Below, piece by piece: positions 2 to 19,577 of a DNA stretch of 64,000 bases (the stretch's first letter is position 1; each line of letters starts with the position of its first letter). The notes below the pieces were generated by a model. That model saw only the letters and a program-made list of their open reading frames with translations. It made no database searches and had not been told where the DNA came from. A program made the position numbers and the translations under genes. This stretch comes from Bacilli bacterium (GTDB lineage Bacteria > Bacillota_I > Bacilli_A > ML615J-28 > CAG-698). The stretch spans positions 125,906 through 189,905 of the forward strand of contig JBMNLZ010000002.1 of assembly GCA_050953065.1 (NCBI GenBank), in the 5' to 3' direction.

Positions 2-385
2 TTGGGGAATCCTCCAATTAATACAATTAAAGGCTTTATTAAAAAGAATTCTTTATATGTTGAGGATAGTAAAAGTGTTGATTTAGAATTAAAGGATAAA
101 ACTGGTACTTTAATTGAAGAATTAAAAGCAGAAAATCAAGAAGTATATATTGGAATTAGACCAGAATTTTTTAAGGTTAGTAAAGATGGTAAGATAAAAG
201 GTTTAGTTGAAATTGTTGAACATATTGGTAGAGATGTAATGACGATTGTTAAAATAGTTGATACTGATCTTTCATTTAGAGCAATTATACCAAACGATAC
301 AAAAATTAAAGTTGGTGAAGAAATAAAATTTAGTTATTCTAAGTACTTTGTCTTTAATGCAAGTACAGGAGAAAGGATTAAATAA
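2..385 (+). CDS. ABC transporter ATP-binding protein, C-terminal fragment (MalK/MsmX-like regulatory domain); 5' end lies outside the window
   Basis: ORF track; C-terminal architecture resembles MalK/UgpC (GxPPxN, IGIRPE); followed directly by two permeases and a binding protein. Confidence 0.6.
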   Translation: MGNPPINTIKGFIKKNSLYVEDSKSVDLELKDKTGTLIEELKAENQEVYIGIRPEFFKVSKDGKIKGLVEIVEHIGRDVMTIVKIVDTDLSFRAIIPNDTKIKVGEEIKFSYSKYFVFNASTGERIK

Positions 386-1350
386 TGTTAGAGTATAAAA
401 AAGATGGATTAAAAGCAAGTGTTGCTTTAATGCCTACTTTACTACTAATGGCAGTCTTTACTTTCTGGCCTATCTTTAGAACTTTAGTAACTGCCTTTAT
501 GGAAGGCTATAATACTAATATGAGTTTTATAGAGTTCTTTCAAAGATTGGGTTCGTCAACTAAGCTTACTCTAAGATGGTTTAAAGATATCTTTGTAATT
601 CAAGATGGCTTGTTTTTAAAATCATTAAGGAACACTTTTGAAATGGCAATTATTTCAGTTCCAATTTCAATTATAGTTTCTTTGTTTATTGCAGTAGCAT
701 TAAATGGAATTAAAAAAGGTCAAGGAATTCTTCAAACAATTTTCTTTTTACCATATGTTACGAATTCAATTGCTTTAGGGATGGTATTCTCATTTATCTT
801 TAGTAGTAATTATGGACTAATTAATGCTTTAATTGAAGCATTTGGTGGAGAGCCTCAAGCTTGGATTTTTAGGATTACTTCAACGGGCGCTCAACCTACT
901 AGAGCATCGATTCTTTTTGTATTAATGGTCTATACAGTTTGGAATGGTCTTGCTTTTAAAATTATTGTGTTTTTATCGGGACTTCAAAGTATTGATAAAC
1001 AATATTATCAAGCTGCTCAAATTGATGGGGCATCTCGTTGGACTGTGTTTAGAAGAATTACAGTACCTCTATTATCACCAATGATACTTTATATTACGAT
1101 TACTTCTTTGATCGGTGCGTTTAAAGCGTATAATAGCGTTATCGCGATTTTTGGACATAATAAATTTGGACCATCATCTAGTCCAAATGAATTTATTACA
1201 GTAGTTGGGTTTATTTATAAATATTTGCCTTTACATAATAATACAAACTATTTAAGTGTAGTCTCAGCTGGTTCTTTAATTTTGTTTTCAATTATAATGC
1301 TTATCACTTTAATCCAATTTTATGTTGGTAAAAAGAGAGTGCATTATTAA
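385..1350 (+). CDS. ABC transporter permease (CUT1 sugar family, UgpA/MalF-like)
   Basis: Hydrophobic multi-TM ORF with a permease signature region; operon context. Confidence 0.8.
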   Translation: MLEYKKDGLKASVALMPTLLLMAVFTFWPIFRTLVTAFMEGYNTNMSFIEFFQRLGSSTKLTLRWFKDIFVIQDGLFLKSLRNTFEMAIISVPISIIVSLFIAVALNGIKKGQGILQTIFFLPYVTNSIALGMVFSFIFSSNYGLINALIEAFGGEPQAWIFRITSTGAQPTRASILFVLMVYTVWNGLAFKIIVFLSGLQSIDKQYYQAAQIDGASRWTVFRRITVPLLSPMILYITITSLIGAFKAYNSVIAIFGHNKFGPSSSPNEFITVVGFIYKYLPLHNNTNYLSVVSAGSLILFSIIMLITLIQFYVGKKRVHY

Positions 1351-1363
1351 GGGGGAATGAAAA

Positions 1364-2263
1364 ATGAACAGTAATTTATATTTAGAAGGCAAAGAATTAA
1401 GAAGATTTAAAACTAAGAGAATGATTAATCAAATATTGATTTATTTCTTCTTAGCTTTAATTGCATTGTTTGTTTTGATTCCTTTTTACTGGATGTTAGC
1501 AACTGCAGTTAAAAGTGATGCTGAGTTGGTTAAAGGCGTAACGTTTTTCCCTCAGGATTGGGCTTTTGAAAACTTTGGGAAAGTGTTTATAAGGGCACCA
1601 TATTTTGGAAGGTATTTTTTAAATACAATTATTGTTGGAACTTTAACTACAATTGGAACTTTAATAACTACAATTTTAGCAGCGTTTGCTTTTGCAAGAC
1701 TTAATTTCAAAGGTAAGAATGTTTTGTTTACAATTTTGCTTGCAACAATGATGATTCCAGGAGAGGTATTTGTTATTTCTAACTTTGTTACTATTGGAAG
1801 TTTTGGTAAAATTCCTTTCCTTAGTTGGGCAGGAAAAGAAACATTTGGAGCCTTAGTATTACCGTTTATTACAAGTGTCTTTTATATTTTCTTTTTAAGA
1901 CAAACATTTAAACAAATTCCAAATGAATTATATTTAGCAGCAAAAGTTGATGGAACTAGTGATTTTAAGTATTTATGGAAAGTTATGATTCCAATGGCGA
2001 AAGCTACTATTACAACGATTTTTATTTTAAGTATGATGGGGGCATGGAATGCTTATATTTGGCCAACTTTAGTTGCTAATAGTGAAAAGATGCGTTTAGT
2101 AACAAATGGACTAATGCAATCATTTACAGATGAATCTGGACAAACTCCAGACAACTTAAGAATGGCAGCAACAACTTTAGTTACCATCCCATTATTAATT
2201 GTTTTCATATGTTTAAGAAAGTATATTATGCGAGGAGTTTCTCGTAGTGGTATAAAAGGTTAA
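1364..2263 (+). CDS. ABC transporter permease (CUT1 sugar family, UgpE/MalG-like)
   Basis: Multi-TM ORF with a permease signature region; operon context. Confidence 0.8.
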   Translation: MNSNLYLEGKELRRFKTKRMINQILIYFFLALIALFVLIPFYWMLATAVKSDAELVKGVTFFPQDWAFENFGKVFIRAPYFGRYFLNTIIVGTLTTIGTLITTILAAFAFARLNFKGKNVLFTILLATMMIPGEVFVISNFVTIGSFGKIPFLSWAGKETFGALVLPFITSVFYIFFLRQTFKQIPNELYLAAKVDGTSDFKYLWKVMIPMAKATITTIFILSMMGAWNAYIWPTLVANSEKMRLVTNGLMQSFTDESGQTPDNLRMAATTLVTIPLLIVFICLRKYIMRGVSRSGIKG

Positions 2264-2278
2264 TGAAAGGAGAAAAAT

Positions 2279-3787
2279 ATGAAAAAACTTATTAGTGTAT
2301 TATTTATTTTAGGAATGGCTTTTATTTTAACTGCCTGTGGTGAAAAGCGAAGCAGTAAAGTTAATTTAGTTAGCATGGAAGAATTTGAAGCTCAAGAAAA
2401 TATTCAAATTACATTTAGAGTATCATTTGGTCAAGCAATTACACCATATGTTCAAGGCTTAATTGATAGTTTTAATGAAAAGTATGATAACGTTACTTGT
2501 ACAATGGAAGTAGTTGGTGGATATGATAATTTGTTAACTCAAACAAAATTAGATGTTCAAGGTAATACTGCACCAACTCTTGTAATTGGTTATCCTGACC
2601 ATATCGCAGCTTATCTATTATCAGATGGAGTTGTTCCGTTAGATGATTTTATGAATAGCGCTGAAGTTGGGTTTAGTGAAGCTGATATGGCTGATTTTAT
2701 TCCTGCGTATTTAGCAGAAAATAATAAATACGATAAAGGGGGAACTTATTATAGTTTGCCATTTAACAAATCAACAGAAGTATTAGTTTATAATAAAGCT
2801 TTCTTTGAACATTTTGAATTAGAGGCTCCTACTACTTGGCAAGAAATGGAAACTCTTACAAAAGATATTGTTGAGATTGTTAAATCAGGAGATGCTGATA
2901 ATACTTGGTCACCAGGACTTACAATGTCAACAATGAATGACTTTGTTCCATTAAACTATGACTCAGATTCTAACTTCTTTATTACAACTGCTCATCAATG
3001 GGGTGGTGTTTATACATCAAGTGCTTTAAAACTTGATGGAGGAGTTAATCTAGAAAAGGGTAAAATGGATTTTGCTGATAGCACACTTAATGCTAAAACT
3101 GTTGAAGGTTTAACATTTATGCAAAATATGGCAAGTTATACTTATGAATCAAAAGCTGCACCATTAGTAACAACACCTAAATATTGGGAAGAAGCTTATG
3201 GAAGCAATCCATTTAAACAAGGTAAATGTGTGATGACAATTGGTTCTACTGCAGGGGTTTCTCATAACCAAGGTGGAGTGGCTACTAATTTAGGCTATGC
3301 ACCAATTCCATATGATACGAATAGTGCTATTAAAACAGTTATTCAACAAGGAACAAATATTGCGATTCTTTCACAAGCAGATGATTATCAAAGAATGGCT
3401 GCATGGTTATTTGTTAAACATTGTTTAAGTTTAGAAGGAACTATTGAATTCGCAGTTGGAACTGGGTATTTCCCTGTAAGAAATTCTGCTTATAATTATA
3501 ATCCTGAAATTGCTGAAGGAGAAAATGAAATAAACGATAAAGCAAAAGTTTATTATGATTTTCTAACTACTCCAACAATTGAACAAATTGCTAAATCTAA
3601 AGTAGCTCAAGTTATTCAATCATATAAGGAATTAGGGTATGTTTATTATGTAGACCCTGCATGGAGTGGATCAGCTGATGTTAGAGTTGAAGTTGGTGTT
3701 GCAATGGAACAAATAGTAATTGATAAACTTGCAATTCAAACTGCTTTAACAGATGCTAAAAATAGAGTGCCTACACTAGATTTTTAG
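2279..3787 (+). CDS. Extracellular solute-binding lipoprotein of the ABC importer
   Basis: Signal peptide with lipobox (LTAC); about 500 aa; SD GAAAGGAG upstream; sits after the permeases. Confidence 0.7.
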   Translation: MKKLISVLFILGMAFILTACGEKRSSKVNLVSMEEFEAQENIQITFRVSFGQAITPYVQGLIDSFNEKYDNVTCTMEVVGGYDNLLTQTKLDVQGNTAPTLVIGYPDHIAAYLLSDGVVPLDDFMNSAEVGFSEADMADFIPAYLAENNKYDKGGTYYSLPFNKSTEVLVYNKAFFEHFELEAPTTWQEMETLTKDIVEIVKSGDADNTWSPGLTMSTMNDFVPLNYDSDSNFFITTAHQWGGVYTSSALKLDGGVNLEKGKMDFADSTLNAKTVEGLTFMQNMASYTYESKAAPLVTTPKYWEEAYGSNPFKQGKCVMTIGSTAGVSHNQGGVATNLGYAPIPYDTNSAIKTVIQQGTNIAILSQADDYQRMAAWLFVKHCLSLEGTIEFAVGTGYFPVRNSAYNYNPEIAEGENEINDKAKVYYDFLTTPTIEQIAKSKVAQVIQSYKELGYVYYVDPAWSGSADVRVEVGVAMEQIVIDKLAIQTALTDAKNRVPTLDF

Positions 3788-3797
3788 GTAATAAAAA

Positions 3798-5057
3798 ATG
3801 TTAAAAAAATATTTAAAAATTTTATTAATAATACTTCTTTTGGTTTTGTCTGCTTGTAAAAAAACAGAAGAACCTATAGAAGATAAACAAGACTTACAAC
3901 TAGATACTAGATATACTGATGCGTTAGAATTAACTACTAGTTTTGAAGGTAAAGAGTTTATTACTCATGGAATAGGCAAAGTATCTTTAGGGCTATGTGT
4001 TGATGGAGATACAATAACTGTAAGAAGTGGAGCATCTAATATTACTATTAGATTTTTAGGAATTAATACACCTGAATCAACAGGAAAAGTTGAACCTTGG
4101 GGGAAACCTGCTAGTGCTTTTGTCAAAGATAAACTTACCAATGCTGATGCTATTGTTTTAGAAGCAGAAGGCGAAAGGACAGATAACAATGGAAGATATT
4201 TAGCTTGGGTTTGGTATCAACCAAAAGGGCAAGATAAATATAGATTGCTTAACTTAGAAATTGTTGAAGAAGCATATTCGTTTTTTACAATGTCTTCTAC
4301 TAAATATCATGAAACTTTTATCTCAGCTCATTATAAAAATACAAATATTAAGAAAAGACTTTATGGAGAAACTGATCCAAGTTTTTCTACTTCAAAAGAA
4401 GCACTTGATACTACAATTGCATATGTTTTATCAGGTAAAGAAGAATATTTAACTGGAACAGTATTTAATTTAACTGTTCAAGTGTTAAGAACTGTTGGAG
4501 ATGATTTCTTTGTCAGAGACATTCAGGCTACCGATATTGATGGTGAAGTAGTTTATGGTGATATCTTTGTTTTTGGATTTTATGGAGTAAGTTATTATAC
4601 TTATTTACAAATTGGAGATATAGTTAATTTTGAATGTAAATTTGATATTGCTGGAAATTATGGAGACCAAATTACCGATGTTAGGAAACTAAAAATTCTT
4701 CGTAATGAAGAAGTTAATTTAGATATAATTGATTCAAGTGATATTACCAATTTAAGTGCATATAAAGGTAGAGTAATTACAGTTGATAATTTAATTTATA
4801 AAGGTTATTATCAATCTCAAAATGATAAAGCTGCTAACCCCGAACAATATACTTTAAAATTTGAATCAAATACTGGTAAAAAATTTGATGTAAGAATAGG
4901 GAACCGTCTTATCTCAAGATATGATGTAGATAGCTTAGTAGTAGATGAGGTATATGCTGTAACTGGCGGAGTAAGCTATTATGAGTTTGCTAATGATTCA
5001 TATCAATTATTATTAGGTGACAAAAACAAATCAAATGATATTGTTTTGAAAGAATAA
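3798..5057 (+). CDS. Lipoprotein with staphylococcal-nuclease (thermonuclease/SNase) domain plus a C-terminal OB-fold-like module
   Basis: Lipobox LSAC; SNase-like motifs DGDTITV, RFLGINTPE, GRYLAWVWY match the remembered SNase core DGDTVKL / RLLLVDTPE / GRGLAYIY. Confidence 0.75.
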   Translation: MLKKYLKILLIILLLVLSACKKTEEPIEDKQDLQLDTRYTDALELTTSFEGKEFITHGIGKVSLGLCVDGDTITVRSGASNITIRFLGINTPESTGKVEPWGKPASAFVKDKLTNADAIVLEAEGERTDNNGRYLAWVWYQPKGQDKYRLLNLEIVEEAYSFFTMSSTKYHETFISAHYKNTNIKKRLYGETDPSFSTSKEALDTTIAYVLSGKEEYLTGTVFNLTVQVLRTVGDDFFVRDIQATDIDGEVVYGDIFVFGFYGVSYYTYLQIGDIVNFECKFDIAGNYGDQITDVRKLKILRNEEVNLDIIDSSDITNLSAYKGRVITVDNLIYKGYYQSQNDKAANPEQYTLKFESNTGKKFDVRIGNRLISRYDVDSLVVDEVYAVTGGVSYYEFANDSYQLLLGDKNKSNDIVLKE

Positions 5058-5078
5058 AAAAGGAGGAAAATTTAAAAA

Positions 5079-7973
5079 ATGAATCTTAAAAAAATTATTA
5101 TTAGTTTTGTAGTATTGTTTTTAGGAGTAGTTTTGGTAGCATGTGATAAAGAGGTAGAAAACCTTGCTGAAACATATATCCAAAACATCAATCTTCTAAA
5201 TCCAGCAGCAATTGTTGATGATATTCAATTGCAAAAGAAAATCAGTGGCCAAGGAAGTGTTACTTGGGTATCTGATAATGAAGCGGTAGTTAAAATTGAG
5301 GAGTATGTTGATGAAACTTTAGCCGCAAGTTTCTTTAAAGGTAGTGTTACTAGACCAGCAGTTGGCGAAGAAGATGTTGTCGTAACATTAACAGTAACTT
5401 ATACATTAGATGGACAAACAGCAACTAGAGAAATTAAAATTAAAGTTTTAGCAGAACCAGCTGCTTTGTCAATTTCTGAAATTTTGTCAATGAGTGTAGG
5501 AGATGAAGTTTTAGCAGAAGGTGTTGTTGCAGCACTTACTCCTAAGGGATTCTTACTTAGTGATGAGACAGAAATGATTTATGTTTATCAAAATGCAACA
5601 CCTACAGTTTTAGTAGGTGATACAGTTAAGGTTAGTGGTAAAATTGCAGTATATCATAGCGCTAAACAAATCTCTAATCCAACTATTACTAAATTAAATA
5701 CAGAAGCAGGAACTTATACTTATCCTGAGGCTGTAAAGGTTACAGCAGATTCTTTAGCAAAGCTTTATAATAAAGACAGTAAAAACTTTAATAATCTTTA
5801 TGAAATTAAAGGCATTATTGAATTAAAAGGAACTTATAATGATATCTATATTAAGGATTTTGAAAATCCTGATATCGCAATCTATCTTCAATATAGTTAT
5901 ATTAACGCAGAAAATGCTACTTTATTTAAAGGTAAAAATGGCGCTGTAGTAAGTTTTAAAGCTTATTCAGTATGTCTTGATAATGATTATTATGATGATG
6001 TAGTAGCTTTGATGTATTTAGATCAAACTTTTGTTGAATACACTGATACTGTTGCTTACTTAACAGTTAGTGGAAGAAACATGATTGATATTGTTAATCC
6101 TCGTCAATATGAAGCAACTCTTTATCCTGCAGTAGAAGATACTACAGTTATTTGGTCAACAAGCGATGAAGAAATTGCAACAGTTGATGAAACTGGTAGA
6201 GTAACAGCACTTGCAGTAGGTGAGGTTGATATCATTGCTACAGTTGGTAATATTACTAATAAAAAAACAATTACAGTTGTAGAAGAGTTAGCAGATCCAA
6301 CTACAGTTAATATTGCAGGAGATGCAGAGATTGTTGAGTTTGGTATTGCAAACTATACATCAAGTGTAGAACCAGAAAATGCAGACCCTTCTGTAACATG
6401 GAGTGTTGATGATGAGACTATTGCAACAATAGATCAAACTGGTAAATTAATTGCTAATAAAGTTGGTAAAGTTACAGTTAAAGCAACTGCAACAGGAACT
6501 GAAGTGTTTGGAACTAAAGAAGTTAATGTTGTTGCGATGGAAATATCTGATATTTCAACTTTACTTCCAACATTAAGTGCAACTCCACAAACAGTATCTC
6601 TTAAGGGTGAAATAGTAGGTATTGCTGCTAAAGGTTGGTATTTAGCTGATAGTACTGGATATGTATACATACACCTAAATAAAACTCCAACTGGAGTTAC
6701 AGTAGGTGATACTGTAAGAATTGCAGTTAAGAAAGCTCAAATTTATTTGAATACTAATAACTATGTATATCAAATGGATGCAAGAGGCGATGGTGAAATA
6801 TATGTATATCCTATTGAAGAAGACTTTACTGAAATTCCAACAGTTGACAAAGCAATAGATACTTTTGAATATGATAATAAAACAGATGTAACAAAAGACT
6901 ATGTAGAAGCTATGGGAACTATGGAAGTATATGGCAAAAAGTGGGTTAGCGTTACTGGTAAATTAATTAAATTTGGAAGTTATAATAACCTATATTTAGA
7001 ATCAGCTACTAATAAAGTTATGATTGACTATAATACTGATGCTGAAGCTCTAGCAAGACTTGGATATTTAATAAATGAAACTATTACTTTAAAAGGTTTA
7101 GTATATGGATTTAATAAGACTAATGGTTGGAGTATTACATTCTTTAATAGAGATGGTGACTTAAAACAAGGTGACACTGTTTTAGAAGTTAAACCAACTA
7201 TTATGAAAGTTGATGAAATTAAAAATGAATTAAGAAATTACTATCCAAATCAAGTTGAAGAAAATATAACTCTTGATTTTGCATCAACTTTATATCCTGA
7301 TGCAGCGTTTACTTATTCATCAAATAAACCTGAATCATTAAGTAATGAAGGTATAGTTGTAAGAGGAACTGAAGATGTAGAAGTTACTTTAACTATGTCA
7401 GTTTATTTAGATGGAAATACAGCAGGTGATGCTGATGGAACAATTGACATTGTTATTAATGTAATAGCAGAAGGTGGTGTACCTCTTTCAACAATCTATT
7501 CAACTGGATTTGAAGCAGATGAAGGATTTGTAGCAACTTCAAGTTATCAAAATACTGATCCTAGATACCAAGGAGCAGAAGGTGCACAATGGGCTATCAT
7601 TATGGGTGCTGTTACTACTACAGGTAAAATTACAGATTTACAAAGCTTACAAATGAGATCTTATACTTCGTTACCAGATACATATGGTTCAGCTATTACG
7701 AATTTTAATATCGCTAATGCTCATAAAGTGACATTTAAAGCTAATGCTTATAATAACCCAGGAACTGCATTAAAGGTCTATTACTCAACTGATGGTGGGA
7801 CAACTTGGCTTGGCGAAGAAACATTTACAATTGTTAAAGCAGTAGGCGAATTCACATACAACTTACCAGAAGGCGGAGTTAATAATGTAAGATTTAAGCT
7901 TGAACATGCCCTTAAAGGTGTAGATAATAGATTAACAATTGATGAATTTACAGTAATTGGAATCTCATCATAA
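5079..7973 (+). CDS. Large surface lipoprotein with Ig-like (Big_2-type) domains and repeated OB-fold-like modules
   Basis: Lipobox LVAC; SD AAGGAGG; Big_2-like segments (TVIWSTSDEEIATVDETGRVTALAVGEVDI); repeated GxxVxVxG...GFxLxD...IYVY modules. Confidence 0.6.
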   Translation: MNLKKIIISFVVLFLGVVLVACDKEVENLAETYIQNINLLNPAAIVDDIQLQKKISGQGSVTWVSDNEAVVKIEEYVDETLAASFFKGSVTRPAVGEEDVVVTLTVTYTLDGQTATREIKIKVLAEPAALSISEILSMSVGDEVLAEGVVAALTPKGFLLSDETEMIYVYQNATPTVLVGDTVKVSGKIAVYHSAKQISNPTITKLNTEAGTYTYPEAVKVTADSLAKLYNKDSKNFNNLYEIKGIIELKGTYNDIYIKDFENPDIAIYLQYSYINAENATLFKGKNGAVVSFKAYSVCLDNDYYDDVVALMYLDQTFVEYTDTVAYLTVSGRNMIDIVNPRQYEATLYPAVEDTTVIWSTSDEEIATVDETGRVTALAVGEVDIIATVGNITNKKTITVVEELADPTTVNIAGDAEIVEFGIANYTSSVEPENADPSVTWSVDDETIATIDQTGKLIANKVGKVTVKATATGTEVFGTKEVNVVAMEISDISTLLPTLSATPQTVSLKGEIVGIAAKGWYLADSTGYVYIHLNKTPTGVTVGDTVRIAVKKAQIYLNTNNYVYQMDARGDGEIYVYPIEEDFTEIPTVDKAIDTFEYDNKTDVTKDYVEAMGTMEVYGKKWVSVTGKLIKFGSYNNLYLESATNKVMIDYNTDAEALARLGYLINETITLKGLVYGFNKTNGWSITFFNRDGDLKQGDTVLEVKPTIMKVDEIKNELRNYYPNQVEENITLDFASTLYPDAAFTYSSNKPESLSNEGIVVRGTEDVEVTLTMSVYLDGNTAGDADGTIDIVINVIAEGGVPLSTIYSTGFEADEGFVATSSYQNTDPRYQGAEGAQWAIIMGAVTTTGKITDLQSLQMRSYTSLPDTYGSAITNFNIANAHKVTFKANAYNNPGTALKVYYSTDGGTTWLGEETFTIVKAVGEFTYNLPEGGVNNVRFKLEHALKGVDNRLTIDEFTVIGISS

Positions 7974-7992
7974 TAAAGAAATTTAATTTTAA

Positions 7993-8034
7993 AAATACTT
8001 CTTTTAAAGAAATTTAAAAGAAGTATTTTTTATT
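7993..8034 (+). terminator. Rho-independent terminator after the lipoprotein gene
   Basis: Inverted repeat AAATACTTCTTTTAAA / TTTAAAAGAAGTATTT followed by a T-run. Confidence 0.6.
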
Positions 8035-8127
8035 TTATTAGATTAACTATAAACAAAATATTTATTTACATTAAAAAAAATGTTATAATAAAGTTAATCT
8101 TTTTATTATTATTTTAGGAGGCTTATT

Positions 8128-9252
8128 ATGGAATACCGCAAATGGAAAAAAATCCCAGTTGAAACATCTTTATTAGGATTTGGTTCAATGAGATTAAAAA
8201 CAGTTAATGATAAAATAGATGAAGAATTAGCTTTAAAATTAGTTGACTATGCATATAATAACGGAGTCAATTATTTTGATATGGCGATGCCATATTTAGA
8301 TGGTCAAAATGAAAGTTTTATGGGACGTGCTTTAAAACGATATAAAAGAGATACATTCTATATAGCTACAAAACTTTCGCTTTGGATGTTTGAGACTAAA
8401 GAAGAAATTGAACAAGTAATTGATAGGCAACTTGAAAACCTTCAAACTAGTTATATTGATTGTTATTTATTGCATGCTTTAAATAAAGAAAAGTTTGAAA
8501 AAATAAAAAGATTAGGTGTAATGGATATTGTTAGAAAATGGAAAAAAGAAGGAAAAATAAAATACATTGGTTTTTCTTTCCATGATGAATACGATATTTA
8601 TAAAGAAATTTTAAACTTTTATGATTGGGATTTTTGTCAGCTTCAACTTAACTATATGGACCAAGATACCCAACAAGGGATAAAAGGCTATTATGATGCA
8701 TTAAACAAGGGAATTCCTGTTATTGTAATGGAGCCAGTTAAAGGTGGAGATTTAGCTAAATTTAATGATAAAGTCTCTTCTATTTTTTATGATTATAATA
8801 AACAAGCAAGTCTTTCTAGTTGGGCTTTTAGATGGGTTGGAAGCTTAGTTGGCGTAAAGTTAATTTTAAGCGGGATGAATACATTAGAACAATTAAAAGA
8901 CAATTTAAAAACATTCGATAACTTTAAACCTCTTAATGAGGAAGAACAAGTATTAGTTTCTAAGGTGAAAGAGGAATTAAAGAAAATTGTTGAAGTGGGC
9001 TGTACAAGATGTGAGTATTGCTTGCCATGTCCTTATGGGGTTAATATTCCAAGAAACTTTAAAATTTTTAATAATTATGCTATGTATAAAAATGAAAATT
9101 CAGCTTTATTTAATTTTAAAGAATTAAAGAAAGAAAAAGCTGATGCATCAATTTGTGTTGCTTGTGGAGAATGCATTAGTAAATGTCCTCAAAAAATTAA
9201 TATTCCAGAAGAGTTATCTAGAATGCTTACTGAAATGAGGTTTTTAAAATGA
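8128..9252 (+). CDS. Aldo/keto reductase family oxidoreductase with C-terminal 2x[4Fe-4S] ferredoxin-like domain
   Basis: AKR-like N-terminal region; two Cys clusters (CTRCEYCLPCP and CVACGECISKCP); SD AGGAGG. Confidence 0.7.
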   Translation: MEYRKWKKIPVETSLLGFGSMRLKTVNDKIDEELALKLVDYAYNNGVNYFDMAMPYLDGQNESFMGRALKRYKRDTFYIATKLSLWMFETKEEIEQVIDRQLENLQTSYIDCYLLHALNKEKFEKIKRLGVMDIVRKWKKEGKIKYIGFSFHDEYDIYKEILNFYDWDFCQLQLNYMDQDTQQGIKGYYDALNKGIPVIVMEPVKGGDLAKFNDKVSSIFYDYNKQASLSSWAFRWVGSLVGVKLILSGMNTLEQLKDNLKTFDNFKPLNEEEQVLVSKVKEELKKIVEVGCTRCEYCLPCPYGVNIPRNFKIFNNYAMYKNENSALFNFKELKKEKADASICVACGECISKCPQKINIPEELSRMLTEMRFLK

Positions 9253-11392: not shown

Positions 11393-12349
11393 ATGAATAT
11401 ATATGCTATTATACTGGCAGCCGGCAAAGGCATAAGAATGAATTCTACCCTACCAAAATGTGCTCATAAAGTAATTGGCAAACCAATGGTAGAATATGTT
11501 GTTGATGCTATAAGACATCAAGAAATTACAGAAATTTATACGGTAGTTGGATATCAAAAAGAAGTAATTGAAGAAATACTAAAAAATAAAACTAAATTTG
11601 CTTTTCAAAAAGAACAACTTGGGACTGCTAATGCTGTAAAAAGTTGTGAAGAGTTTTTAAAAGGAAAAGAAGGTGTTACTTTAATTGCGATTGGTGATAT
11701 GCCTTTTATAACTAAAGAAACTTATAAAGAATTACTTGATTTTCATATCAAAAGTAAATCTGATTTAACTGTTTTAACTACGATTCATAAAGACCCAAGT
11801 GGGTATGGAAGAATTGTTAGAAACAGTAAAGGTCAGGTTATGGCAATTGTAGAAGATAAGGATTGTGTTGGCGAACAACGAAACATTAAAGAAATAAATG
11901 CATCTGTATATGTAATAGATAATAAAAAACTTTTTATTTATTTAGAAAAGATTCAAAACGTTAATAAACAAAATGAATATTATTTAACGGATTTAGTGAG
12001 CCTATTTTATGAAGACAATCTAAAAGTTTCAACTTATATTGTAAATGATTATGATGAAATAAGTGGAATCAATGATCAAAATCAACTGGTTAAATTAGAA
12101 GCAATGCTTCAAAAAAGAATTCTAGATAAACATATAATTAATGGTGTTGATATTGTTGATATCAACAGTGTTAAAATAGGTTATGATGTAGAGATTGGCG
12201 AGAATGTTACGATTATGGAAAACGTTGAGATTTTAGGTAAAACTGTAATTGGTAATAATTCAAGCGTTGGACCTAATGCTAGTGTAATTGATTCAAATAT
12301 TTTAGAAGGTTCTAAAATATTTGATACAAAAATTATCAATAATAAATAA
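11393..12349 (+). CDS. GlmU-like sugar-phosphate nucleotidyltransferase, short form (uridyltransferase domain plus only the start of the left-handed beta-helix)
   Basis: N-terminal AIILAAGKGIRM nucleotidyltransferase motif; 318 aa versus about 450 aa expected for GlmU; sits in the glmU position between spoVG and prs. Confidence 0.65.
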   Translation: MNIYAIILAAGKGIRMNSTLPKCAHKVIGKPMVEYVVDAIRHQEITEIYTVVGYQKEVIEEILKNKTKFAFQKEQLGTANAVKSCEEFLKGKEGVTLIAIGDMPFITKETYKELLDFHIKSKSDLTVLTTIHKDPSGYGRIVRNSKGQVMAIVEDKDCVGEQRNIKEINASVYVIDNKKLFIYLEKIQNVNKQNEYYLTDLVSLFYEDNLKVSTYIVNDYDEISGINDQNQLVKLEAMLQKRILDKHIINGVDIVDINSVKIGYDVEIGENVTIMENVEILGKTVIGNNSSVGPNASVIDSNILEGSKIFDTKIINNK

Positions 12350-13727: not shown

Positions 13728-15263
<1,536 letters not shown>

Positions 15264-15463
15264 AAGGAGAAAGGTTAAACCTTTAACCAAAAATTATTTT
15301 AAATTTCTTTGATTTTTTACTCCATCATGTTCTATTTAGTTTTGAGAGACTTTGTCTTTCTAAAATATAGTTTTATTAATAGATCTTTGAAAATTGAATA
15401 GTACTTGTCGCAAGAAAGTAAGAACACTTTTTAAAAATTTTAGTGTTTAAATAAAAAGAATAA

Positions 15464-18327
<2,864 letters not shown>

Positions 18328-18364
18328 TAAAGCGATGAAGTACTATTCAATTTTGAAAGAGAAG

Positions 18365-18475
18365 TATGGTGACAACAGCAAAGTGGAAACACCTGTTCCC
18401 ATCTCGAACACAGAAGTTAAGCACTTTAACGCCGATGATAGTTGGGCTTCCCCGCAAAAGTAGGAAGTTGCCTTA
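18365..18475 (+). rRNA. rrf: 5S ribosomal RNA (ends approximate)
   Basis: Conserved CCTGTTCCCATCTCGAACACAGAAGTTAAGC and GCCGATGATAGT blocks; terminal helix pairing. Confidence 0.9.
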
Positions 18476-18572
18476 CTTCCTTTCTATTAATAAAAAAATA
18501 TATACATTTTAATATTTTTGTGTTAATATCTAATGTAGATAAAAGAGTTACAGATAATTTCACGCAAAAAAT

Positions 18573-18648
18573 GGAGGATTAGCTCAGCTGGGAGAGCATC
18601 TGCCTTACAAGCAGAGGGTCGGCGGTTCGATCCCGTCATCCTCCACCA
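18573..18648 (+). tRNA. tRNA-Val (anticodon TAC)
   Basis: Cloverleaf read by eye; anticodon loop CTTACAA; 3' CCA encoded. Confidence 0.85.
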
Positions 18649-18652
18649 TTGT

Positions 18653-18728
<76 letters not shown>

Positions 18729-18734
18729 TTCTTT

Positions 18735-18810
18735 GTCTCCGTAGCTCAGAAGGTAGAGCAACTGACTTTTAATCAGTGGGTCGGACGTTCGAATCGTCTC
18801 GGAGACACCA
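18735..18810 (+). tRNA. tRNA-Lys (anticodon TTT)
   Basis: Acceptor GTCTCCG/CGGAGAC; anticodon loop CTTTTAA; CCA encoded. Confidence 0.85.
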
Positions 18811-18833
18811 TTTCTCTACCAGATGAAAAATGC

Positions 18834-18920
18834 GCTTGAGTGGCGGAATAGGTAGACGCGCAGGACTTAAAATCCTGTGGTAGCAATACCGTGTGGGTTC
18901 AATTCCCACCTTAAGCACCA
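18834..18920 (+). tRNA. tRNA-Leu (anticodon TAA), long variable arm
   Basis: Anticodon loop CTTAAAA; class II variable arm; CCA encoded. Confidence 0.8.
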
Positions 18921-18936
18921 AAAGTTTTTAAAAGAT

Positions 18937-19012
18937 GGGTCCTTAGCTCAGCTGGGAGAGCGCCTGTTTTGCAAGCAGGAGGCCGACGGTTCGATCCCGT
19001 TAGGATCCACCA
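18937..19012 (+). tRNA. tRNA-Ala (anticodon TGC)
   Basis: Acceptor with G3:U70; anticodon loop TTTGCAA; CCA encoded. Confidence 0.85.
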
Positions 19013-19033
19013 TTTTTTTAAAGATTAGTAACT

Positions 19034-19110
19034 GGCGGTGTAGCTTAGCTGGCTAGAGCGTACGGTTCATACCCGTGAGGTCGGGGGTTCAAATCCCTCC
19101 ACCGCTACCA
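19034..19110 (+). tRNA. tRNA-Met, elongator (anticodon CAT)
   Basis: Close to the remembered Bacillus elongator tRNA-Met (GGCGGTGTAGC...GGTTCATACCCGT). Confidence 0.7.
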
Positions 19111-19115
19111 TAAGC

Positions 19116-19192
19116 GGACCCGTAGCTCAGTTGGTTAGAGCTACCGGCTCATAACCGGTCGGTCGCAGGTTCGAGTCCTGCTGGGTCCACCA
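19116..19192 (+). tRNA. tRNA-Ile2 (anticodon CAT, lysidine-type); Met not excluded
   Basis: CAT anticodon; body resembles the remembered Bacillus tRNA-Ile(LAU) (GGACC...GGCTCATAACCG...GGTTCGAGTCC). Confidence 0.6.
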
Positions 19193-19206
19193 GTTTTAAA
19201 ATGTAC

Positions 19207-19297
19207 GGAGGAATACCCAAGTCCGGCTGAAGGGATCGGTCTTGAAAACCGACAGGCGTGCGAGCGCGCGGGGGTTCGAATCCCTCTTCCTCCGCCA
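19207..19297 (+). tRNA. tRNA-Ser (anticodon TGA)
   Basis: GGAGGAATACCCAAGTCCGGCTGAAGG start; anticodon loop CTTGAAA; long variable arm. Confidence 0.85.
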
Positions 19298-19339
19298 TTT
19301 TATTAAAAATAAATTAAGTTAAATATATAAGCATAACAT

Positions 19340-19415
<76 letters not shown>

Positions 19416-19419
19416 AAAT

Positions 19420-19495
19420 GGTCCCATGGTGTAGTGGTTAACATGCCAGTCTGTCACACTGGAGATCGCGGGTTCAAGTCCCGTTGGGACCGCCA
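19420..19495 (+). tRNA. tRNA-Asp (anticodon GTC)
   Basis: Anticodon loop CTGTCAC; acceptor GGTCCCA/TGGGACC. Confidence 0.85.
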
Positions 19496-19501
19496 TTTTT
19501 T

Positions 19502-19577
19502 GGCTCAGTAGCTCAGTTGGTAGAGCGAAGGACTGAAAATCCTTGTGTCGGTGGTTCAATTCCGCCCTGAGCCACCA
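19502..19577 (+). tRNA. tRNA-Phe (anticodon GAA)
   Basis: Anticodon loop CTGAAAA; acceptor GGCTCAG/CTGAGCC; CCA encoded. Confidence 0.85.

Follow-up and report, generated by a model that had tools for sequence, protein, structure and literature searches.

A conserved cassette of nuclease, tandem-OB lipoprotein and Ugp-like ABC importer genes, probably for scavenging extracellular nucleic acid, in an uncultured Bacilli lineage

In sediments and guts, extracellular DNA is among the major sources of phosphorus, nitrogen and carbon. In Mycoplasma agalactiae, the genes for the binding protein P80, for the staphylococcal nuclease (SNase) family enzyme MAG_5040 and for ATP-binding cassette (ABC) transporter components are co-transcribed, and were proposed to supply nucleotide precursors (PMC3585158). 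The surface nucleases of mycoplasmas are also virulence factors. A syntenic locus of Izemoplasmatales, including the family UBA5603, was described as a putative "DNA-degradation locus"; it encodes ABC and phosphate transporters, nucleases, phosphohydrolases and a large protein that has both nucleic-acid-binding and lamin-tail domains (PMC8289736). Relatives in culture break down DNA and use it for growth (PMC8397711). For Hujiaoplasma, a locus is described that includes NrnA, RecR, ABC transporters, a nucleoid-associated protein and a ribonuclease acting outside the cell, and genes of this locus are up-regulated with DNA and RNA (PMC10470597). In Bacteroides thetaiotaomicron, the DNA-utilisation locus ddbABCDEF encodes DdbD, a homologue of the Riemerella surface protein RA0C_RS04920, and the DdbD model was likened to a dsDNA-bound HIN domain (ddb paper). 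DUF5689 is a domain of RA0C_RS04920, which is needed for natural transformation. In Thermus thermophilus, a binder of the dinucleotide U3G (uridylyl-3'-5'-guanosine) adjoins UgpB in the phosphate-ester-recognising branch of the CUT1 importer family (PMC12718374). The locus analysed here lies in a 64,000-nucleotide stretch of DNA from an uncultured Bacilli bacterium (assembly GCA_050953065.1, contig JBMNLZ010000002.1, positions 125,906 to 189,905, forward strand), which is called the window below. At window positions 2-7973 (+ strand), the genes of an ABC importer are followed by those of a SNase lipoprotein and of a 964-amino-acid (aa) surface lipoprotein, and the two lipoproteins have in common a unit of two oligonucleotide/oligosaccharide-binding (OB) folds. 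The locus belongs to the kind already described in mycoplasmas and Izemoplasmatales, and it is probably a conserved six-gene cassette for the scavenging of extracellular nucleic acid. Among wall-less bacteria and low-GC bacteria related to them, this operon is common.

The six open reading frames (ORFs) are tightly packed, with an intergenic spacing of -1 (a 1-base overlap) to 21 nt. Every element that had been named in an initial annotation of the sequence was found at its coordinates, and the proposed order (an ATPase-permease-permease-binding protein operon, then two lipoproteins) was borne out by the domain matches. The features are as follows:

2..385, + strand: regulatory C-terminal domain of an ABC ATPase (MalK/UgpC type), cut by the window edge, with the gene start lying upstream (PF17912 OB_MalK 5e-8; TOBE_2; NCBIfam UgpC 1.7e-8).
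385..1350, + strand: ABC permease 1, UgpA-like, CUT1 family (PF00528, BPD_transp_1, 4e-15; UgpA 3.4e-22 versus MalF 1e-13).
1364..2263, + strand: ABC permease 2, UgpE-like (PF00528, BPD_transp_1, 1.4e-21; UgpE 1.7e-33 versus MalG 4e-22).
2279..3787, + strand: substrate-binding lipoprotein of 502 aa, lipobox LTAC, Ugp-like branch of CUT1 (SBP_bac_8 3.6e-32; UgpB 8e-20).
3798..5057, + strand: SNase lipoprotein of 419 aa, with signal peptide and lipobox LSAC (aa 1-20), SNase core and tandem-OB unit (PF00565; AlphaFold model; 632 homologues).
3963..4367, + strand: SNase catalytic core (aa ~56-190), with Asn90 at nt 4065-4067.
4407..5054, + strand: C-terminal tandem-OB (DUF5689-like) unit of the nuclease (aa ~204-419).
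5079..7973, + strand: surface lipoprotein of 964 aa, lipobox LVAC, without a catalytic domain (Pfam aBig_2 1.6e-14, Big_2 1e-20).
5454..6053, + strand: tandem-OB unit 1 of the 964-aa lipoprotein (aa 126-325).
6054..6539, + strand: two Big_2 Ig-like spacer domains of the 964-aa lipoprotein (aa ~326-487).
6540..7178, + strand: tandem-OB unit 2 of the 964-aa lipoprotein (aa 488-700; 1.9e-45 with a profile iterated from unit 1).
7470..7970, + strand: C-terminal beta-rich domain of the 964-aa lipoprotein (aa 798-964), possibly choice-of-anchor-J-like, of low confidence (sub-threshold NCBIfam matches).
7991..8040, + strand: AT-rich intrinsic terminator at the operon end, an 18-bp hairpin followed by a U-run.

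The start codon of the first permease gene overlaps the stop codon of the ATPase gene, and each gene is preceded by a Shine-Dalgarno-like sequence (a weak one ahead of the SNase gene). Since the gaps do not exceed 21 nt, no plausible internal terminator was found on the + strand and a strong terminator follows the last gene, the arrangement is consistent with a single operon, and the six genes are probably transcribed as one RNA that ends at 7991-8040. Folding of this terminator gave -20.4 kcal/mol (z -5.6), a value equalled by 0/200 shuffles; the hairpin was missed by the consensus terminator scan because its stem is poor in G-C pairs. Inside the operon, the consensus scan of the + strand returned one match only (5730-5746), which falls inside the large gene and has no clear T-run. 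The lipobox cysteine is present in at least 90% of the sequences of the nuclease family alignment and is invariant in the alignment of the large protein.

For assessment of the conservation of this arrangement, one genome per species was scanned, 376 relatives were obtained and the best 80 loci were analysed. Nuclease homologues, both near and remote, were found in the same setting. The ATPase-permease-permease-binding protein genes lay directly 5' of the nuclease gene in all the loci with enough upstream flank (67/67), and the next same-strand ORF after the nuclease gene carried one to four tandem-OB units wherever at least 900 nt were available downstream (75/75 loci). The two lipoproteins, which the initial annotation regarded as "appended" to the importer, belong instead, as fixed parts, to a six-gene cassette in all the related loci examined. 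These loci carry the labels Acholeplasmataceae, Izemoplasmatales, Haloplasma, Anaeroplasmataceae, "Coprobacillus", Liberiplasma and unclassified Bacilli, and the closest match is the metagenome-assembled genome (MAG) STD2_143, with a nuclease 81% identical to that of the window. In approximately 55 loci the cassette is preceded by dnaX-ybaB-recR; because this place has been kept, the cassette is old and vertically inherited, and a recent insertion, which was also considered, is ruled out by the same position. A small ORF (82-105 aa, no Pfam match) was observed between recR and the ABC ATPase gene in three distant loci (L001 4995-5243, L004 4957-5208, L006 5180-5497); in the genome of the window it would fall just upstream of position 1.

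In approximately 16-18 loci of the Izemoplasmatales type, two DHH/DHHA1 (NrnA-like) genes and a sodium/phosphate (Na/Pi) cotransporter-PhoU gene follow downstream on the same strand, frequently alongside an extra SNase paralogue. Loci with the DHH/DHHA1 and Na/Pi genes include L006 (15084-18897), L041, L047, L050, L054, L055, L056, L062, L068, L075 and L076. Such downstream genes would suit the import of short phosphorylated oligonucleotides.

The nuclease was identified by its SNase domain (PF00565, 42.3 bits versus a cut-off of 21), by its match to NucI (1e-17) and by phmmer matches to SNase chains (~1e-9). The AlphaFold model of the 419-aa protein has the SNase fold and is of high quality: pLDDT (the score predicted for the local distance difference test) 93.9 and predicted template modelling score (pTM) 0.86. 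When the protein was aligned with SNase, as the initial annotation had suggested, the equivalents of the catalytic residues Arg35, Glu43 and Arg87 were found to be R85, E93 and R133, which are invariant in 118 aligned homologues, and those of the Ca2+ ligands Asp21 and Thr41 to be D71 and T91, which are kept in every aligned homologue. The third Ca2+ ligand differs: in the motif GINTPE, Asn90 (nt 4065-4067) aligns with SNase Asp40, so that the set Asp21/Asp40/Thr41 is incomplete. This Asp-to-Asn exchange had been read correctly from the letters alone, together with the suggestion that it may alter the activity or the metal dependence of the enzyme.

The part of this suggestion that concerns activity probably does not hold. 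Among the 118 homologues the Asp40 position is occupied by Asp in 82 and by Asn in 36, and at least 14 independent switches between the two are needed on a neighbour-joining tree of the homologues. Because Asn is this frequent and has been switched this often, the exchange is probably a tolerated, near-neutral variant of the family and not a loss of function. An inactivating or functionally special Asn was considered as well, and was rejected in view of the repeated switching, which includes a homologue with Asp at this position that is 69% identical to the nuclease of the window. As for metal dependence, mycoplasma enzymes that retain the Asp vary among themselves: MAG_5040 works best with Mg2+, and Mhp379 needs Ca2+ (PMC3585158, PMC12115388). 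A subgroup of the nuclease homologues (P0022 and P0027-P0060, ~510-540 aa) was observed to carry N-terminal Listeria-Bacteroides repeat (Flg_new) domains, and P0022 has an aBig_2 domain in addition; the family thus appears to swap its surface-display modules.

The two lipoproteins are linked by a module that they share. The initial annotation had noticed a similar OB-like module in both; the similarity was confirmed, and the module turned out to be a unit of two domains (tandem OB, ~200 aa) rather than a single OB domain, with one copy in the nuclease (aa ~204-406) and two in the 964-aa lipoprotein. BLASTP comparisons of the nuclease with the large protein, and of each protein with itself, detected no shared module. 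By profile-profile alignment (hhalign), the C-terminal region of the nuclease matched the unit profile of the large protein, which was built from large-protein-type sequences only, with a probability of 97% and an E-value of 1e-10 over 166-172 columns, which places the resemblance far beyond chance. Iterated profile searches of the large protein, started from aa 126-325 or from aa 488-700, converge on each other; the 1.9e-45 obtained by the unit-1 profile on unit 2 was reached with unit-2-type sequences already included by the last round.

The fold of the unit was predicted, as had been proposed for the module, and the models match nucleic-acid-binding OB and HIN folds, in agreement with the resemblance claimed initially; the predicted fold is the tandem-OB, HIN-like fold of the DUF5689 type, and the nearest structures include dsDNA-bound HIN domains. 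Relatives of the unit reach PF01336 (OB-fold nucleic-acid-binding), with up to 61 bits in multi-unit proteins, and PF18942 (DUF5689), with a profile that covers both barrels. For DUF5689, the homologue P0098 scored 28.7 bits versus a cut-off of 28.6, a precomputed match was present in 21 of the 120 homologues listed, and one large-protein-type unit matched at 5.6e-5. A weak match (8.6e-5) was obtained between the first barrel and the N-terminal region of ExeM/NucH, which are extracellular endonucleases. In a search of 1.84 billion representative proteins, the tandem-OB unit was found in 907 proteins, some of them with 9-10 copies; in the scanned sample of these, it mostly accompanies aBig_2 domains, and no catalytic domain.

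The 964-aa protein that follows the nuclease is a lipoprotein, as had been annotated, with the lipobox LVAC in the ORF 5079-7973. Its domains are arranged in the order aBig_2, tandem-OB unit 1, two Big_2, tandem-OB unit 2, aBig_2 and a C-terminal beta domain. The model of the last domain (aa ~798-964) is unreliable (pLDDT ~30-50), and the domain gave sub-threshold NCBIfam matches to a Riemerella surface endonuclease family of the type IX secretion system (4.9e-5) and to choice_anch_J (0.005). No lamin-tail (LTD) domain was matched in the 964-aa protein of the window by the Pfam scan; relatives have LTD.

The importer had been annotated as sugar-type, which is right at the level of the family (CUT1) and fails beyond it: each of the four transporter components has its best score with a Ugp model of NCBIfam, and UgpB structures are prominent among the solved relatives. 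The importer is, by its sequence, of the Ugp-like (organophosphate) branch of CUT1 and not a typical sugar importer. The scores against the equivalog cut-offs (UgpB 70.8/411, UgpA 79.6/335, UgpE 116.5/297 and, for the fragment, UgpC 33.9/432) mean that the components are not members of the Ugp equivalogs themselves. A complete ATPase of 385 aa is encoded in the 81%-identical locus L001. The closest solved relatives of the binding protein are the 7c0f series (2e-16) and then UgpB (2e-13; several UgpB structures at ~1e-13 to 1e-11), with oligosaccharide binders at 1e-8 or worse; the protein also weakly matches the NCBIfam model of the P68 surface lipoprotein (1e-12, 47 bits versus a cut-off of 200). 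Staphylococcal nuclease releases 3'-phosphorylated mono- and dinucleotides, so a receptor for phosphate esters would fit the products of the enzyme encoded next to it, and the ligand of the binding protein is most likely phosphate-bearing (3'-nucleotides or dinucleotides) rather than a sugar. No riboswitch was found 5' of the ATPase gene in the 8 related loci scanned. A purine riboswitch (82.8 bits) was observed at 17787-17888 of locus L024, an Acholeplasma MAG, ~5 kb downstream of the cassette.

The nuclease fold, the catalytic residues, the homology of the module and the fixed gene order are established here, and the scavenging of nucleic acid could proceed on them as follows. The 964-aa lipoprotein, tethered to the outside of the membrane, would display its two tandem-OB units on Ig-like spacers and capture DNA or RNA. 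The OB unit of the SNase lipoprotein would hold the polymer while the core cuts it, and the products, if staphylococcal nuclease is a guide, would be mono- and oligonucleotides with a 3'-phosphate. Small products, most likely phosphate-bearing, would then be collected by the Ugp-like binding lipoprotein and imported by the two permeases and the ATPase for the salvage of nucleotides, phosphorus, carbon and nitrogen.

Several points weigh against this reading, in which binding, cutting, transport and co-transcription are inferred steps. The window's own units have no significant match in Pfam or NCBIfam (sub-threshold PF01336, S1_2 and ExeM/NucH only); unit 1 reaches PF01336 at an E-value of 0.059 (13.8 bits versus a cut-off of 27), and PF18942 is matched, even at E-values up to 10, neither by the nuclease C-terminal region nor by either unit of the large protein. 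The tie of the unit to DUF5689 and PF01336 thus runs via homologues and profiles. The AlphaFold model of the 964-aa lipoprotein is of moderate confidence (pLDDT 64.9, pTM 0.35; ~75-85 in the OB units); the alignment behind it is shallow, as the homologue search with the Big_2 region removed gave only 11 proteins. The OB units are acidic (isoelectric point (pI) 4.2-5.2 here, family medians 4.4-4.5), as are the whole mature nuclease and large lipoprotein (pI 4.2-5.2), and the SNase core is near neutral (pI 6.8), compared with the basic enzyme of S. aureus. Non-specific nucleic-acid binders are not usually so acidic, and the charge speaks against binding by simple electrostatics; it is possible that the acidic units bind DNA with the help of divalent cations, or by aromatic and basic patches of local extent. 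On the side of the importer, the 7c0f series is taken here to be the dinucleotide-binding protein of T. thermophilus, an identity that a literature search did not confirm; Ugp-like binders also take glycerol-3-phosphate and glycerophosphodiesters; and nucleosides or nucleobases were proposed as the imported substrate by Wasmund et al. Finally, no DHH or Na/Pi match at E < 1e-8 was obtained anywhere in the 64-kb window.

The best surviving alternative, although we regard it as unlikely, is that the transporter takes glycerol-3-phosphate, glycerophosphodiesters or a sugar, and that the nuclease and the large lipoprotein have a surface role of their own, with no shared flow of substrate; the clearing or remodelling of biofilm DNA, escape from DNA traps and adhesion are candidates for this role. 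Such a transporter would agree with the Ugp models, which score best for all four components, and with the UgpB structures among the closest solved relatives, but all the Ugp scores are far under the equivalog cut-offs (e.g. 70.8 versus 411). A surface role would likewise agree with the four Ig-like domains of the large protein, which are typical of adhesins, and with the reports of mycoplasma SNase lipoproteins as cytotoxins and virulence factors (PMC12115388); many of the relatives, however, live free of a host in sediment or digesters. A gene order that is invariant across deep lineages (67/67 and 75/75) is hard to explain without functional coupling, and in Hujiaoplasma the addition of nucleic acids evokes a response from genes of the nucleic-acid-degradation locus (PMC10470597).

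It is a little less probable again that the tandem-OB units bind a ligand other than nucleic acid (oligosaccharides, another polyanion or DNA-coating proteins) and that the large protein is a general adhesin or carbohydrate binder. Oligosaccharides are also bound by OB folds, the units are strongly acidic (family median pI 4.4), weak F5/8-type-C-like and BACON domains, which are associated with glycans, occur in relatives, and the units of the window lack a significant Pfam match to a nucleic-acid-binding family. What speaks for nucleic acid is the following: the unit is fused directly to the SNase core in the 118 aligned homologues, relatives match PF01336 and DUF5689 (with the weak match to the N-terminal region of ExeM/NucH), and the nearest structural matches include the dsDNA-bound HIN domains. 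A capture of DNA for natural transformation and not for food, as with the DUF5689 protein of Riemerella, is very improbable: RA0C_RS04920 is essential for that process, the Ddb locus is described as evolutionarily related to it and the cassette adjoins dnaX-ybaB-recR in ~55 loci, but a non-specific SNase would destroy the transforming DNA, CUT1 ABC importers move small solutes and not DNA strands, the cassette showed no competence genes and dnaX-ybaB-recR is a common housekeeping arrangement.

Within the favoured reading, the scavenging of nucleic acid, a narrower version can be put forward only tentatively: the Ugp-like ABC system would be a dedicated importer of the 3'-nucleotides and dinucleotides released by the SNase, and the multi-OB lipoprotein a surface receptor for DNA. 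If this were true, wall-less and low-GC bacteria would own an ABC-based counterpart of the Bacteroides Ddb locus, built with the same DUF5689-type tandem-OB module; the nuclease/ABC operons of pathogenic mycoplasmas would be reduced descendants of the cassette; and the acidic OB units would bind DNA via bridging divalent cations, using the invariant Asp of GF-x-L-x-D.

The following was observed in the remainder of the window. The next gene 3' of the operon (8128-9252) encodes an aldo-keto reductase fused to a C-terminal 4Fe-4S dicluster domain, and has a promoter-like site of its own at 8065-8094. A GlmU-like ORF of 318 aa is present at 11393-12349; the usual bifunctional GlmU is longer, and the ORF may be without part of the acetyltransferase domain, or its frame may be interrupted. 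The stretch 13728-19574 holds a complete rRNA operon (16S 13728-15261, 23S 15464-18328, 5S 18365-18476) and, after the rRNA genes, a cluster of 11 tRNA genes at 18573-19574.

With the window, one more uncultured lineage provides a clean and minimal example of the cassette. What is added here to the earlier descriptions is that the nuclease, the multi-OB partner and the Ugp-like importer make up a unit of six genes that is invariant across Acholeplasma-, Izemoplasma-, Haloplasma- and Anaeroplasma-like genomes, that one DUF5689-related tandem-OB module is common to the nuclease and to its partner lipoprotein, that the importer is Ugp-like in nature, and that the second Asp of the Ca2+ ligands is freely exchangeable with Asn in the nuclease family, probably neutrally.

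Compared with the operons of Mycoplasma (Mhp379, MAG_5030-5070, MG_186, Mpn133), the locus shows the same association of a lipoprotein thermonuclease with a CUT1 ATPase, two permeases and a binding-protein-like lipoprotein: here too the nuclease has a lipobox (LSAC, Cys20) and its gene is adjacent to the CUT1 genes on the same strand. The initial annotation had noted that membrane nucleases of mycoplasmas are encoded in ABC operons and may feed nucleotide salvage, and the literature supports this link (PMC3585158, PMC12115388). The gene order is unlike that of M. agalactiae, as here the ABC genes come first and the nuclease gene stands after that of the binding protein. The mycoplasma nucleases are shorter (250-390 aa), and neither a tandem-OB extension nor a large multi-OB partner is reported in the reviews. 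For mycoplasmas, strict conservation is described for the second Asp of the Ca2+ ligands, which is Asn here; the mycoplasma systems were likened to the cassette by their description.

Among the Izemoplasmatales "DNA-degradation loci" and their relatives (Wasmund et al. 2021; Xianfuyuplasma coldseepsis; Hujiaoplasma nucleasis), the cassette is syntenic with the loci of Ca. Izimaplasma HR1 (L006) and UBA5603 (L058, one of the 80 loci analysed), and shares with them the ABC transporter, the thermonuclease, the large secreted protein with predicted nucleic-acid-binding domains and the place downstream of dnaX-ybaB-recR. From the description in the paper, the nucleic-acid-responsive locus of Hujiaoplasma appears to be the same locus. 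Unlike these loci, the cassette of the window has no adjoining NrnA-like DHH phosphoesterases, extra nucleases or Na/Pi transporter, its large protein ends in a possibly choice-of-anchor-J-like domain and not in a lamin-tail domain, and its host belongs to an uncultured low-GC Bacilli lineage.

With UgpBAEC and the U3G binder of T. thermophilus, the cassette has in common the CUT1 branch that best matches all four components and that recognises phosphate esters; the scores, however, lie far under the equivalog cut-offs, and the binding protein of the window is ~80-100 aa longer. Compared with the S. aureus nuclease A/NucI, the nuclease of the window is lipid-anchored, has Asn at the Asp40 position and a near-neutral core, and carries a 225-aa tandem-OB extension. 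The Bacteroides ddb locus and Riemerella RA0C_RS04915/04920 differ in using a TonB-dependent outer-membrane channel where a cytoplasmic-membrane ABC importer is found here, and belong to another phylum; the units of the window, unlike DdbD, miss the DUF5689 Pfam model, which only their homologues reach. In both cases, surface nucleases are combined with a lipoprotein of the DUF5689-type tandem-OB (HIN-like) kind and with a dedicated importer, and the whole is reminiscent of a polysaccharide-utilisation locus applied to DNA.

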